A stretch of 56,149 nt of DNA, from NCBI GenBank assembly GCA_048940925.1, contig JBHLOC010000030.1:1-56149 (forward strand), given 5' to 3'. Of the stretch, positions 549 to 5,511 are shown one piece after another. The DNA comes from Promethearchaeota archaeon (lineage in GTDB: Archaea > Asgardarchaeota > Lokiarchaeia > Sigyniarchaeales > SOKP01). Under the pieces are notes generated by a model. It was not told where the DNA came from. It saw only the letters and a program-made list of their open reading frames with translations, and ran no database searches. Numbering within the stretch: position 1 is the stretch's first letter; every line of letters begins with the position of its first letter. The position numbers and the translations under genes are program-made.

Positions 549-1481
549 TTAGGTTTGAGATAATAATTCGATTAAGGCTCTTGGAATTTCTTTATAATCA
601 TTCACAGCATAAAATTTTCCTTTTCCAACTTTAGCAATTTCTCTGCAGGTATTAATTCCTTGATTTGCATCATTTTCTGCTGGCATCCCGATGACATGAA
701 GCTTGGGAAAATTTTTTGCTACTTCGACTGGATTTTCTCCTCTGTTATAATTCCCATCGCTAATTAAAATCCCAAATTTCTCTTTTACGGGATGCCTAAT
801 TTTATTTAATTCTTTTAAACCCTTTTTTAAACCAAGAAAAATATTTGTAAAACCAACGGCTTCTGAATCTAAAATCTCATCAATTATAGTGATAATATCT
901 TTTTTTTGGTCTATCTTTTTAAGAGTCATTGCGGTTGAATTAAATAACACAATAGCAAAATCTTCCTTTTCCATATGGTAAGCTAAAACAGAAGCTGTAA
1001 GCGCTGCATTCAATAATAAGCGCCCATACATACTCCCACTAGTATCTAAAATCAACACAATATTTCTTTTTTGACGCTTTCTTACAATTCCAAAAATATC
1101 TTGATAATTCAAACTTTTTTCGTATATTTTTAAAGGATTATGCTGGATTGTTTCATCAAGACTGAATTCAGGCATTCCAATCTGATATTTTGGAACTGTT
1201 TTTTTAAATTGACCTCTTATGCCCCTACTAGTTATTTTTAATGAGAGTTTTAAAATACTCTGCCTTGCTAACCGTCTGAAAATAGCTTTATATTTTTTTG
1301 AGATAGGACGTCTAATAAAAAAGTAAACTTCTGGCATAAAATCTCCCGATTCTTTAGCTTTTTCAGCGAAAAATTGCACACCTTCTTCAGTATCTAAAGC
1401 ATCTGTCGCAGCATAGACATTTGCTTTAAGTAAACCCATTATTGCCTCTAAGTTTTTATATTGGATTGCGAGATAGGTCAT
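549..1481 (-). CDS. VWA-domain protein, partner of the upstream MoxR ATPase; frame stays open upstream to 1673 with no ATG/GTG/TTG
   Basis: MIDAS motif DTSGS, later T (GFTNI) and ISDG. Adjacent to MoxR. Confidence 0.85.
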   Translation of the reverse strand: MTYLAIQYKNLEAIMGLLKANVYAATDALDTEEGVQFFAEKAKESGDFMPEVYFFIRRPISKKYKAIFRRLARQSILKLSLKITSRGIRGQFKKTVPKYQIGMPEFSLDETIQHNPLKIYEKSLNYQDIFGIVRKRQKRNIVLILDTSGSMYGRLLLNAALTASVLAYHMEKEDFAIVLFNSTAMTLKKIDQKKDIITIIDEILDSEAVGFTNIFLGLKKGLKELNKIRHPVKEKFGILISDGNYNRGENPVEVAKNFPKLHVIGMPAENDANQGINTCREIAKVGKGKFYAVNDYKEIPRALIELLSQT

Positions 1482-1628
1482 TTCTTTAATTTGCTTATAA
1501 TCTAATGTATTAGCAAGGCTCTGGTAATAATCTGGCTTTTTCTTTTTTTTTCTGATTATTTCAAACTTTAAAATTTCTTTATCTGGGCGAGATTCAGTAA
1601 GTCTAACATGCAGCCTTTTCTCAATCTC

Positions 1629-1670
1629 ATCGGATTCCTCCTCTGAGAAATCATCGATTATTGAAAATCC
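1629..1670 (-). other. candidate -1 programmed ribosomal frameshift signal (G_GAU_UUU + 5-nt spacer + hairpin)
   Basis: Heptamer GGATTTT at 1670-1664, one codon before the MoxR stop. Hairpin AUCG-AU-GAUUUCUC-AGAG-GAGGAAUC-CGAU at 1658-1629. The -1 frame is the VWA frame. Confidence 0.55.
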
Positions 1671-2530
1671 GTTTTATTCAAAACAGCTAAAACAATATTG
1701 GTGATTATTTCTTTCTTAGATTGAGTTAATCCATCTTCTAACTCAATTTTATTATACAATGCCATTACTGCAGATTCCACCCAATTTTTTGTACTTCTAC
1801 TATTTTCATATTTATCTATTAGAGTAGCGAGATCAATACCACCTCTAATGGAGCTTCCTCTACGAATAGACGTACTATCTCTTGTTGCTTGTACCACTAA
1901 TTGAGATATTGTGGAAATTCTATCAGAATTTATGTTAGCTTCCTGTTTAATGATTGAAATTTCTTCTTCTGGAGTTTGGTATTCTAAATTGATCCATACA
2001 AATCTATCTTTTAATGCCTCCCCTAAGACAGTAACACCTACATGAGCCGCGGGATTTTGAGTAGCAATTACAAAAAAATTATTGTGGGCCTTAATTGTCT
2101 TTAATTTAGGAATTTCGAGTATTCCTTCATCAAGGGCAGTTAGTAATGAATTTTGAGTATTTTCAGGCATTCGATTTATTTCATTTATAAATAAACATCC
2201 TCCATTCAACATTGCTAAAGTTAGGGGACCATATCTATAAGAATCTTCATTATAACCTTTCGCAATCACAAGGGGTGGTTCAAAATAACCGACAAGATTA
2301 TGAGGTAGTAATTCTTCACTACAATCAACTCTATAAAAATTAGATTCATTAGAGCCATAATATTTAGCAATGGCTTTAGCTAATGTAGTTTTTCCTACTC
2401 CTACATTTCCTTCTAATAAGATATTCTTACCTACTGAGCGAGCTAAGACAATTTGTTTTAATTCTTCTGTTCTACCAATTATTTTAAATCTCTCTTGTAC
2501 TTCTCTTACTATACTGGTCATATCAACCAT
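1658..2530 (-). CDS. MoxR-family AAA+ ATPase
   Basis: Walker A GNVGVGKT, variant Walker B LFINEINR, ATQNP sensor, ALKDRF arginine finger. Confidence 0.9.
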   Translation of the reverse strand: MVDMTSIVREVQERFKIIGRTEELKQIVLARSVGKNILLEGNVGVGKTTLAKAIAKYYGSNESNFYRVDCSEELLPHNLVGYFEPPLVIAKGYNEDSYRYGPLTLAMLNGGCLFINEINRMPENTQNSLLTALDEGILEIPKLKTIKAHNNFFVIATQNPAAHVGVTVLGEALKDRFVWINLEYQTPEEEISIIKQEANINSDRISTISQLVVQATRDSTSIRRGSSIRGGIDLATLIDKYENSRSTKNWVESAVMALYNKIELEDGLTQSKKEIITNIVLAVLNKTDFQ

Positions 2531-2676: not shown

Positions 2677-3696
2677 ATGGAGGAAAAAACATATAAAATC
2701 GTCTATATTGTTGGTTTGTTAGTGACCACAGGATTAATGTTTTTAATTCTGTTTTTGGGTCATTTATCTCTCAACTTTACATTTCTTGTCTTTTTTTGGG
2801 TTGTAAAATTTTTAGCAGGTTTTGGTTTAGTCCTAAGTATATCAAATGGTTTCTTATTATTAATGGATAAGTTAAGTAATAAATTGGGTAAAAGAGGTAC
2901 TACAGTTTTAATTGTAATTGAGATAATTATTCCAGCACTTTTAATTGCTTATGCAATTTATACAATCATATCAAGTTATACCCAAGCAGCTGCGGTTACT
3001 CAAACAGGTCTGTGGCTATGGTTTGATAATATTATATATATTTACGGGATAATTTCCTTGCTACTAAATCTTTATATTATACCTTTAGCGAGTGAAGAAT
3101 TTCATAAGGCTGTTGAAATGAGTAAACTTTCCTTCTGGAAAAAAGGAGCGAAGAAGGTTGCCAGAAAAATTAAAAAGGAATACTTTTCTCTGAGAAAGGA
3201 ATACGCAAAAGCCCAAGTACAAGATCAAATGGCTGTGAAAGATATTTTAGATTTATGGCGCAATAAATTTGCAGTTAATTTATTATTAATTTTAGCTATT
3301 GGTTCATTTATTTTTATGCCGATCGCCTTTATTTGTGTACTATATTGGCTTCATTTATATGTTTTTTATAGATTGCAAATTAGATTATGGGAAAAAGCAT
3401 TTTTACTGATTGGGATGATTTGGATTGGATTTATTGCCGTTATTTTACCATTTTTAAGTTTTCCGAAAGTAGTGGAGATTTGGATAACTATCGATCCTTA
3501 CTTTTGGACTGCAAATGTATTATATCTAGTTGGAATTATTTTAGCAACCTTTATCTTTATAAAAAAAGTACTTAATTTACAAGGGATTACTATTAGTGGA
3601 CTAAAGATCCAACTGAAAAACAAAAAAATTACGAGGCTTAAAAAAGAAAAAGAAGAATTAGAAAAACAATTGAAAGAAAAAAACTCAAATTCGTAG
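2677..3696 (+). CDS. multi-pass membrane protein of unknown function with a C-terminal coiled coil
   Basis: About 7 hydrophobic segments and a Lys/Glu-rich C-terminus. Confidence 0.75.
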   Translation: MEEKTYKIVYIVGLLVTTGLMFLILFLGHLSLNFTFLVFFWVVKFLAGFGLVLSISNGFLLLMDKLSNKLGKRGTTVLIVIEIIIPALLIAYAIYTIISSYTQAAAVTQTGLWLWFDNIIYIYGIISLLLNLYIIPLASEEFHKAVEMSKLSFWKKGAKKVARKIKKEYFSLRKEYAKAQVQDQMAVKDILDLWRNKFAVNLLLILAIGSFIFMPIAFICVLYWLHLYVFYRLQIRLWEKAFLLIGMIWIGFIAVILPFLSFPKVVEIWITIDPYFWTANVLYLVGIILATFIFIKKVLNLQGITISGLKIQLKNKKITRLKKEKEELEKQLKEKNSNS

Positions 3697-3721
3697 CTAA
3701 TTTAACCAAAGTTTTATATTT

Positions 3722-4972
3722 TTATGTAGGGAAAAGTCTTACTTTGACTTTATCTCCTTTTTTTAAACCTTCTTGATGAGGAGGGATTTCAACTATTCCA
3801 TCTGAAAAAATTAACGAACTTATAATTCCCGATCCTTTTAATTTTATTGGTGTGGCAATAAGTTCTTCTTTAGCTTTTTCAAGTTTTACTCTTAAATAAT
3901 GAAGATATCCAAGGCTAGAAACGGGGATATCCTTACCAATTGTTGCGAAAATTTCAATTCTTGGATCAAGAACAGAGGCTCCTAACATTTTTCGAATTGC
4001 AAGCCCTGCAATTTTTAAAAAAGATACATATGCGGCAACCGGAGTGCCAGGCAGGCAAAAAATTAAAGTGTTATTTAATAGACCGATTAATACGGGGGCT
4101 CCTGGTCTTTGAGCAATTCCATGTATTAAAATCGTACCTATTTCATCGATAACTTCAGGTAGATAATCTTTAGTACCGACTGAAGTACCTCCAGTGAAAA
4201 TGATAATTTGAGAATCTTTTGTAGCATCAATTAATTTGATTTTAATAGCATTTTTATCATCTTCTACAGTCTCCCCTCTAATAACTATTCCGCCATACGT
4301 ATTGGTCAGAGCAGAAACCATTGGAGTATTTGAATTATAAATTTTTCCTGGTTGAAGCTTTTCACCAGGTTCAAGTAATTCATCACCAGAAGAAAAAATG
4401 CTTATTTTTGGTTTAGATCGAACTTGTATATATTTAAATCCCAATGAAGTTAAAAATGCTATATGTTCAGCTTTTAACTCAGTCCCCTTGCTTAAAACAT
4501 GGGTTCCTTTCTTAATATCTTCCCCTTTCTTTGAAATATTCTTCCAAGGAGGTATAGAAACATATAAATTAACAATATCACCCTCAATTTCGGTGTCTTC
4601 AATTTTTATAACGGCATCTGCTCCTTCTGGTATTGGAGCTCCTGTAGATATTCTGATTGCTTCACCATTATTAAGTATAAAGTTGGAATATTCACCAATT
4701 TCCACTTTTCCCACTAGCTTAATTTGTTTTGGATTTTTAGGGGAAGCATTAAATGAATCTTCTGCTTTGATGGCATATCCATCCATAGCAGACCGATTAA
4801 AGGGGGGAAGATCTATTTCACATATTATATCAGTAGCTAAAATTCGATTTAATGATTTACTTAAATCAACTTGTTCAATTGGATTTAATTCAATTCGTAA
4901 TAAAAGTGTTTTTAAAGCATCTTCTAAAGAGGTCAGTTTTGAAAATCCTATTTTTCTTAATTTGTTAACCAT
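3722..4972 (-). CDS. moeA: molybdopterin molybdenumtransferase MoeA
   Basis: PPFNRSAMDGYA, ISTGAPIPEGADAV, SSGDEL, TGGTSVG, LPGTP. Confidence 0.95.
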   Translation of the reverse strand: MVNKLRKIGFSKLTSLEDALKTLLLRIELNPIEQVDLSKSLNRILATDIICEIDLPPFNRSAMDGYAIKAEDSFNASPKNPKQIKLVGKVEIGEYSNFILNNGEAIRISTGAPIPEGADAVIKIEDTEIEGDIVNLYVSIPPWKNISKKGEDIKKGTHVLSKGTELKAEHIAFLTSLGFKYIQVRSKPKISIFSSGDELLEPGEKLQPGKIYNSNTPMVSALTNTYGGIVIRGETVEDDKNAIKIKLIDATKDSQIIIFTGGTSVGTKDYLPEVIDEIGTILIHGIAQRPGAPVLIGLLNNTLIFCLPGTPVAAYVSFLKIAGLAIRKMLGASVLDPRIEIFATIGKDIPVSSLGYLHYLRVKLEKAKEELIATPIKLKGSGIISSLIFSDGIVEIPPHQEGLKKGDKVKVRLFPT

Positions 4973-4974
4973 TA

Positions 4975-5511
4975 TTATTCCTCCTTATTAATCATGTATA
5001 CAACATGTTTTAATTCGGGAATCAACAACTCCCTAAATGCTAATTCAACTGCCTTAGGCGATCCTGGAAGTAAAAATATTGCTTTATCTTTTATTTTCCC
5101 TCCAGTAGCTCTTGATAACATCGCTGCAGGACCAATTTCCTTATAAGATAAATTTCTAAAAAGTTCACCAAAACCCTTAATTTCTTTTTCTAACATGGGT
5201 TTAATAGTTTCATAAGTAATATCTCTAATAGTTAAACCCGTACCCCCACTAAATATTATAGAATGAATGGATTTATTCACTATAAACTTATTTAAGACAT
5301 CTTTAATCTTTTCTTCATTATCTGGTACGATTTCAGTGGCATACAATGAGATTGTTTCATAATTTTTTAATAAATGTTTTATTAATGGAATTGTTTTATC
5401 CGTACTTTCTTCCATTTTTTGTAATTCATTAAATCGAGTAGTACTGACAATAACTAAAGCTATATTAACGATTTTTGGACCTTTTTTTTTATGTTCTTCA
5501 TGAACTTTCAT
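4975..5511 (-). CDS. moaB: molybdopterin adenylyltransferase MoaB/MogA
   Basis: SGGTGLTIRDIT, GFGELFR, AMLSRA, LLPGSPKA. Confidence 0.92.
   Translation of the reverse strand: MKVHEEHKKKGPKIVNIALVIVSTTRFNELQKMEESTDKTIPLIKHLLKNYETISLYATEIVPDNEEKIKDVLNKFIVNKSIHSIIFSGGTGLTIRDITYETIKPMLEKEIKGFGELFRNLSYKEIGPAAMLSRATGGKIKDKAIFLLPGSPKAVELAFRELLIPELKHVVYMINKEE

Follow-up and report, generated by a model that had tools for sequence, protein, structure and literature searches.

Does an Asgard archaeal ATPase gene that overlaps a reading frame without a start codon form two genes, or one gene that is read in two ways? The question is raised by a contig of a Promethearchaeota archaeon of the Lokiarchaeia (GenBank assembly GCA_048940925.1, contig JBHLOC010000030.1, 56,149 nucleotides (nt); this whole stretch is hereafter called the window). 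In the window, an open reading frame (ORF) for a MoxR-type AAA+ ATPase runs into an ORF for a von Willebrand factor type A (VWA) domain. A first-pass annotation, based on the letters of the window alone, had suggested that the two are joined by a programmed -1 ribosomal frameshift. From the comparative analysis described below, we estimate a probability of about 85% that programmed -1 frameshifting at this locus yields an ATPase of 290 amino acids (aa) together with a 660-aa ATPase-linker-VWA fusion, the two ORFs being one recoded gene.

The overlapping reading frames

All coordinates of the AAA+/VWA locus refer to the minus strand of the window. The 0-frame ORF (positions 1658..2530) encodes the 290-aa MoxR-type AAA+ ATPase (Pfam AAA_5 and AAA_3), the putative termination product. 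Its translation exhibits a Walker A motif GNVGVGKT (2387..2410) and a Walker B segment LFINEI (residues 111-116; 2183-2200), which reads hhhhNE. The 3' end of this ORF is ACG GAU UUU CAA UAA. The predicted slip site G_GAU_UUU, in the phase of the AAA+ ORF, occupies 1664..1670, and the 0-frame stop codon UAA (1658..1660) lies 3 nt on its 3' side.

Relative to the ATPase ORF, the VWA frame is shifted by -1. It is closed by a TAA two codons 5' of the heptamer (1674..1676), opens at 1673 and runs for 374 codons to its stop codon at 551-549; the entire open frame (549..1673, stop codon included) would form the C-terminal part of the 660-aa fusion. The earliest ATG, GTG or TTG in this frame is the ATG at 1481, 64 codons downstream of the frame opening. 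Given the off-frame stop density of about 0.09 per codon in this 30% G+C gene, an open run of 64 codons has a chance probability of about 0.002, and the start-less open stretch is thus not a matter of chance. The start-less extension (1482..1664) consists of an acidic linker followed by a conserved helical segment (SIIDDFSEEESDEIEKRLHVRL). The VWA domain itself is found at 582..1064 (Pfam VWA, E-value = 4.4e-11, residues 204-364 of P0001), with the DxSxS motif of the metal ion-dependent adhesion site (MIDAS) at 1032..1046 (D210, S212 and S214 of P0001). The conceptual fusion amounts to 289 + 371 = 660 aa, and its junction peptide, read from the sequence, is TDFSIIDDFSEEESDEIEK. The first-pass annotation had placed the end of the ATPase ORF, the heptamer (1670-1664) and the frame opening (1673) correctly on the sequence, and its figures of some 60 start-less codons running into the VWA ORF and of products of 290 and about 660 aa agree with the values given here.

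Conservation of the phase, the slip site and the stop codon

The relative phase of the two frames was measured at 99 orthologous Asgard loci and two Hadarchaeota loci, in each of which both ORFs were located. Among 61 related genomes, 57 carry an orthologue of the VWA frame together with its start-less extension. Phylum-wide, 256 of 400 genomes have a VWA-frame orthologue, the open frames measuring 360-392 aa. The carriers are Promethearchaeota (Asgard), including Hodarchaeota, Hermodarchaeota, Heimdallarchaeota, Borrarchaeum, Sifarchaeum and Promethearchaeum. An alignment of orthologues had been proposed as a check of the frameshift in the Lokiarchaeia; the -1 overlap with the end of the ATPase ORF proves to be kept at 83 Asgard loci belonging to 19 families, as well as at both Hadarchaeota loci.

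All 83 of these Asgard loci exhibit an in-phase site with an A-site codon UUN preceded by U. Canonical X_XXY_YYZ heptamers account for 36 of them and G_GAU_UUU for 37. The commonest heptamers are GGAUUUU (37), AAAUUUU (12), UUUUUUC (10), UUUUUUA (7) and AGAUUUU (6); rarer ones are AAAUUUC (3), GGGUUUU (2), CCAUUUU (2) and several found once. Family f2, among whose members are closed genomes and a Promethearchaeum metagenome-assembled genome, reads A_AAU_UUU_CAA_UAA (L040/L124, L039 and L042). The 0-frame stop codon of the ATPase follows the slip site after 0-1 codons in 81 of the 83 loci. In several families the heptamer itself marks the opening of the -1 frame and the overlap is reduced to 13 nt (13-16 nt in many lineages), so that the place of the shift is pinned.

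The two Hadarchaeota sites, C_GAU_UUU CGG UGA and G_GAU_UUC CAG UGA, exhibit the same layout as the Asgard loci. Their occurrence reflects either ancient inheritance or transfer. Both loci (L133 and L135) come from metagenome-assembled genomes, where the -1 layout and the UGA stop codon are accompanied by a GGGGGA/UCCCCC hairpin and by GAUGAC. At a Bathyarchaeota locus (L134) the frame pattern is unclear.

Synonymous diversity along the conceptual fusion was computed from a codon alignment of 31 species of the genus. It averages 0.42, and falls to 0.06-0.07 over T-D-F-S-I-I-D-D-F at the junction. The low diversity persists for about 15 codons past the ATPase stop codon, where a single frame is coding. 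Comparably low values are observed elsewhere only at the extreme 5' end of the gene (smoothed value 0.14).

A covarying hairpin downstream of the slip site

A stimulatory hairpin is predicted at 1621..1658, either as the fold of the first-pass annotation (1658-1629) or as the fold of the genus consensus (1657-1621). The former is built of AUCG, an AU bulge, GAUUUCUC, an AGAG loop, GAGGAAUC and CGAU. It is the minimum-free-energy fold of the segment 1663-1615 (-12.1 kcal/mol, z = -2.0), with 7 of 200 shuffled sequences being equally stable. At the genus level, a hairpin within 45 nt after the stop codon is common to 31 species. The exact 8-bp stem of the window is perfect only in the window and in one other locus (L010), most species folding this stretch slightly differently. 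Hence the fold proposed from the window alone stands as a minimum-free-energy structure, and its register matches that of the hairpin found throughout the phylum, whereas its precise stem does not extend to the genus.

Base pairing also covaries between lineages, as a frameshift signal of this kind had been expected to do. At the order level, the covariation score of the helix pairs is 0.476, against 0.19 in shuffled alignments (none of 500 reaching the observed value), and sliding the pairing partner gives at most 0.14. At the phylum level, the families exhibit different stems in the same register: GGAGGA/UCCUCC, GGGAAUUC/GAAUUCCC, GGAGAU/AUCUCC, AGGAAUU/AAUUCCU and GGGGGA/UCCCCC. In this register the 5' arm starts 10 nt past the heptamer, and a conserved GAUGA marks the end of the 3' arm. 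With the stem held in this fixed position, 86% of 125 cells are paired (25 distinct sequences from 13 families), as compared with 23-70% off register. The peptides encoded by the different stems differ, which argues that the pairing is selected at the RNA level. In 18 of the 19 families, the 45-nt stretch that follows the site folds more stably than the locus median (sign test 8e-5, a value that is indicative only since the families are related). The spacer between heptamer and main stem is 10-11 nt, or 5-6 nt if the outer pairs are counted. A search against Rfam gave no family above threshold, the sole match being a small nucleolar RNA model with E = 0.55.

Directly 3' of the hairpin, many families keep GAUGA (1629-1625 in the window) as a nucleotide sequence, read as D-D/E in the VWA frame. 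A small ORF starting from the out-of-frame AUG within GAUGA was considered and rejected, such ORFs being 6-50 codons long and unconserved.

In-frame fusions among relatives

Fusions of the two domains in a single frame, which the first-pass annotation had proposed to look for, do exist among relatives. In an exhaustive profile-free search, about 25 proteins of 580-711 aa, among the 150 matches listed, match the query in their C-terminal half. Nine long matches (563-711 aa) were scanned for domains, and all nine exhibit AAA_5 followed by VWA. The 711-aa protein P0035 aligns with the window ATPase over residues 3-289, up to ...SDF (48% identity, E-value = 3e-90), and with the VWA frame over residues 40-371 (31% identity). 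Longer forms were sought by a word-index search of proteins of at least 656 aa, a weak test, which returned none at E <= 1e-10.

A phylogenetic tree of the VWA halves, rooted at midpoint only, places all the -1 loci in one clade (Shimodaira-Hasegawa-like approximate likelihood ratio test, SH-aLRT, 99). Twelve of the 14 in-frame fusions branch outside this clade, and within it lies one fused pair, formed by P0035 and L079, the latter from an Asgard genome. Such a pattern, in which it is the joined polypeptide that is conserved, is classical for a recoded gene.

L079 and L078 come from two species of the same genus in family f24. L079 (genome G290) is a 732-aa in-frame fusion, and L078 (G285) has its VWA part in the +1 phase after ...SSFFRSRIQQKIK-stop. 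Either the state changed recently, or one of the two assemblies is in error.

Start codons of the VWA frame

No start codon is conserved across the 83 -1 loci. The earliest in-frame ATG, GTG or TTG lies more than 10 codons past the site in 75 of the 83 loci (median 28, up to 109 codons), and its position varies between species; the frame is uninterrupted in every locus. The start-less extension exhibits motifs (RLRLS..DLLKYEI..YY..L...L.F..IK) that are kept between families at 40-50% identity.

Two candidate starts in the window were rejected. At the position of ATG 1481, most orthologues have a leucine, and conserved protein sequence is found upstream of this codon. The ATA at 1661, which the first-pass annotation had given as its alternative, does not hold either: the codon over the stop is UUA, GUA or CUA in other families, and the position is unconserved.

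Proposed mechanism

The locus thus exhibits the components of a frameshift cassette at the sequence level: a slippery heptamer in phase, a covarying 3' structure, and a start-less downstream ORF with an overlap of conserved phase. In the mechanism that we propose, most ribosomes would pass G_GAU_UUU, read CAA and terminate at UAA, releasing the 290-aa MoxR-type ATPase. Some ribosomes would pause over the slip site owing to the hairpin starting 5-11 nt downstream, and possibly to the adjacent stop codon too. Paused ribosomes would slip back by one base, with tRNA-Phe exchanging one UUU for another and tRNA-Asp exchanging GAU for GGA. They would then continue with UCA AUA AUC... to complete a 660-aa protein composed of the AAA+ module, the acidic linker, the helical region and the VWA (MIDAS) domain. 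We infer that the slip takes place on the ribosome and, by analogy with ChlI/ChlD or NorQ/NorD, that both products form one AAA+ ring with a set number of tethered VWA adaptors.

Weighing the frameshift against its alternatives

Several points weigh against programmed frameshifting. All support for it is comparative and computational, and according to a 2021 review experimental proof of -1 frameshifting in Archaea exists for a single case (PMC8211752). The P-site re-pairing of GAU to GGA is imperfect, and worse at the six A_GAU_UUU loci; a single-tRNA slip on U_UUU may thus be the actual event. Hairpin stability is modest, at -8 to -12 kcal/mol within the genus and with a z of about -2 in the window, and a main stem 10-11 nt past the heptamer is at the long end for -1 stimulators, unless the weak outer pairs count. 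A canonical start codon overlaps the stop in a few lineages (TGATG in L065, ATGA in L076). In one family (f18) the VWA gene stands in the +1 phase, and nine of ten genomes have an ATG 10-13 nt past the stop codon. Such starts indicate that separate initiation is an evolutionarily accessible alternative.

The f18 pairs (L055, L082-L090) share the +1 phase with one of f32 (L077). They conserve AAG_UUU_UUU_CGG, and one of them (L085) is without the ATG. Either an ordinary start was gained secondarily in these families, or a +1 shift occurs at the UUU before the CGG codon.

The alternative that survives best is that of two separate proteins, the VWA frame being initiated at a non-canonical codon (ATA 1661 or the ATT at about 1624) or by termination-reinitiation, with the GGAGG in the linker acting as a Shine-Dalgarno sequence. 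We consider it rather unlikely. GGAGG-like purine runs do occur past the stop in many families, but this GGAGG is the 5' arm of the hairpin, paired to CCUCC, and other families have unrelated, likewise paired sequences in its place. An ATG or TTG is found over the stop in a few orthologues (L065, L076 and the UUU_UGA cases), and the f18 ATG lies shortly past it; however, no in-frame start or near-cognate codon is conserved, AUA, UUA, GUA or CUA standing over the stop according to the lineage. Separate initiation would also leave unexplained the invariant -1 phase, the in-phase U_UUN, the opening of the frame just 5' of the site and the suppressed synonymous change over it, and relatives with in-frame fusions show that the architecture works as one polypeptide. 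Independent initiation of the VWA frame may act as a minor route, and some lineages have acquired overlapping starts.

An ordinary operon of a paralogous pair in the same genome also speaks for separate proteins. This pair (L051; genome G000, contig 63, 30000-34500) consists of a 313-aa AAA_5 ATPase and an 829-aa VWA protein, the latter with an ordinary ATG 4 nt past the ATPase stop codon, i.e. a normal two-gene operon. It shows the "normal" AAA_5/VWA layout for this organism. Open frames of about 830 aa resembling the L051 VWA protein are found in most genomes of the genus.

A stutter of RNA polymerase on the T run is a far less probable explanation. It would produce a minority of mRNAs one base shorter or two bases longer, with the two ORFs in frame. 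Runs of six to seven U (UUUUUUC/A) are present in families f4, f13 and f15-f17, and such slippage has been thought possible on the poly-A runs of chlD-type genes (PMC3711429). Yet the genus of the window and the A_AAU_UUU and G_GGU_UUU lineages have only four U, too short for known slippage, and the conserved hairpin, the correct phase of the heptamer and the adjacent stop codon are ribosomal features.

That an assembly indel has split one ORF, or that the VWA part is an untranslated remnant, is hardly credible: although the window comes from a metagenome-assembled genome of 90 contigs, the same phase is found in more than 80 independently assembled species genomes, the work of many groups and including closed single-contig genomes, and the VWA frame is unbroken, its MIDAS residues do not vary in the 22-sequence alignment, and it is widely distributed in the phylum. 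An indel check at the junction had also been proposed. Judged on contigs of independent sequencing runs, not on raw reads, the junction is bridged by X6 and X7 (1645-1834 and 1500-1671) with no inserted or deleted letters.

Protein families and structure

The ATPase matches Pfam AAA_5 (E-value = 2.6e-21) and AAA_3 (3.6e-20). Against PDB sequences, its best single-domain match is the MoxR protein 2r44 (60.7 bits), followed by NorQ and CbbQ. Its Walker B motif has NE instead of DE, and the same is observed in the in-frame relative P0035. In the VWA domain, the MIDAS residues (DxSxS, T276 and D306) are invariant in an alignment of 22 sequences. An AlphaFold2 model of the -1-frame product (predicted local distance difference test, pLDDT, 87) exhibits 30 disordered residues at the start, a helical bundle and a VWA fold. 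The top Foldseek matches of the VWA model in the PDB are BatB and the VWA domains of NorD from NorQD complexes. The locus therefore encodes a VWA partner with an intact MIDAS directly downstream of a MoxR-class AAA+ ATPase.

The possibility that the pair is a chelatase was examined and rejected on family scores far under the cut-off and on the gene content of the genome. The ChlD and cobaltochelatase models gave 23.5 bits for TIGR02031 (cut-off 499.55) and 22.9 and 25.9 bits for TIGR02442 (cut-off 779.45). The in-frame fused relatives reach 37-62 bits with ChlD/cobaltochelatase models. The best Pfam family of the ATPase is AAA_5, not Mg_chelatase. No CobN/ChlH (PF02514) was found in the genome of the window, which is 100% complete by marker genes, and the same search detected it in control genomes. 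A special relationship to midasin/Rea1 was likewise rejected. Midasin/Rea1 gives the highest summed PDB score for P0002 (135 bits), but this score sums over repeated modules that individually reach at most 38 bits, as against 60.7 bits for MoxR 2r44.

Comparison with known systems

The frameshifted AAA+/VWA layout is so far described only for chelatase (chlD) genes. Through a -1 shift on A-rich sites, frameshifted chlD genes produce two subunits, a short AAA+ one and a long AAA+-VWA one, and their hosts are bacteria plus Methanocaldococcus and Methanococcus (PMC3711429, PMC9227772, PMC5009743); the first-pass annotation had cited these two products in the same sense. Like them, the present locus is annotated as two genes, would shift to the -1 frame where the AAA+ module ends and has in-frame fusions elsewhere. 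Unlike them, it encodes an AAA_5/MoxR-type ATPase and exhibits a U-rich N_NNU_UUN site rather than A_AAA_AAR or poly-A, with the 0-frame stop 0-1 codons past the site, in a genome without CobN/ChlH.

The slip site itself has its counterpart in plant viruses. GGAUUUU had been named in the first-pass annotation as a -1 slippery site of dianthoviruses and umbraviruses, in accordance with the sites of pea enation mosaic virus RNA2 (PEMV2) and of red clover necrotic mosaic virus (RCNMV). In PEMV2 the site reads G_GAU_UUU_UGG_UAG, and the stop codon 3 nt on its 3' side is needed for efficient frameshifting (PMC5009743). The window shares with PEMV2 and RCNMV the identical heptamer and, with PEMV2, a stop codon 3 nt 3' of it (here G_GAU_UUU_CAA_UAA, followed by a stem-loop). 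In contrast, the umbravirus and dianthovirus sites lie in plant-virus RNAs, are read by 80S ribosomes and involve long-distance RNA pairing, whereas the present site belongs to a cellular archaeal gene with a local hairpin.

The fucA1 gene of Saccharolobus solfataricus consists of two ORFs expressed by -1 frameshifting at a heptamer (PMC1616953; PMC8211752). It resembles our locus in being a cellular archaeal gene split in two ORFs with a heptamer. There, however, the shift is needed for the sole functional product and is found in one lineage only, whereas at our locus each of the two products could plausibly serve as a subunit, and the signal is conserved phylum-wide. Our literature search found no description of frameshifting in Asgard archaea or in MoxR-VWA systems, consistent with the first-pass annotation, which knew of none.

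In gene order, the locus is similar to the MoxR-VWA chaperone pairs NorQ/NorD, CbbQ/CbbO and RavA/ViaA, where a MoxR-class AAA+ ring acts together with a VWA/MIDAS adaptor whose gene is immediately downstream. The two partners there are separate polypeptides with their own start codons and adjoin a client enzyme, whereas the adaptor of the present locus is start-less and would be covalently tethered. In domain order, it is similar to midasin/Rea1, in which an AAA_5-type ATPase, an acidic (D/E-rich) linker and a C-terminal MIDAS are found in one polypeptide. Midasin/Rea1 has six tandem AAA modules (about 4900 aa), in contrast to the single module here, and the likeness shows no specific kinship.

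If the frameshift is real, the locus would be a cellular, non-mobile gene with a recoding signal (heptamer, adjacent stop codon and covarying hairpin) conserved phylum-wide. Archaeal ribosomes are close to eukaryotic ribosomes, and the locus would provide a natural test bed for the response of an archaeal ribosome to a signal that occurs in identical form in plant RNA viruses. The annotation of hundreds of Asgard "VWA domain proteins", which now carry arbitrary internal start codons, would have to be changed. The production of an ATPase and of an ATPase-adaptor fusion from one message would then appear as a recurrent AAA+/VWA solution beyond the chelatases. A still wider picture can be drawn, which we consider unlikely as a whole: that of an ancient device for recoding, which arose before the Asgard lineages diverged and is common to Hadarchaeota, setting the ratio of free AAA+ to D/E-linker-MIDAS subunits in one ring. 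It would be a single-module prokaryotic counterpart, possibly a relative, of midasin/Rea1, and its slip efficiency might be tuned by the hairpin and the adjacent stop codon.

Neighbouring genes

No client gene is evident nearby in the first 5.5 kb of the window, the only region inspected, and no cross-genome search for a conserved client was made. Upstream of the locus (2677-5511), a divergent gene is predicted from its translation to encode a 339-aa multi-pass membrane protein. On the strand of the MoxR gene in the same region, two ORFs look like MoeA (416 aa) and MoaB (178 aa), as read from their translations.

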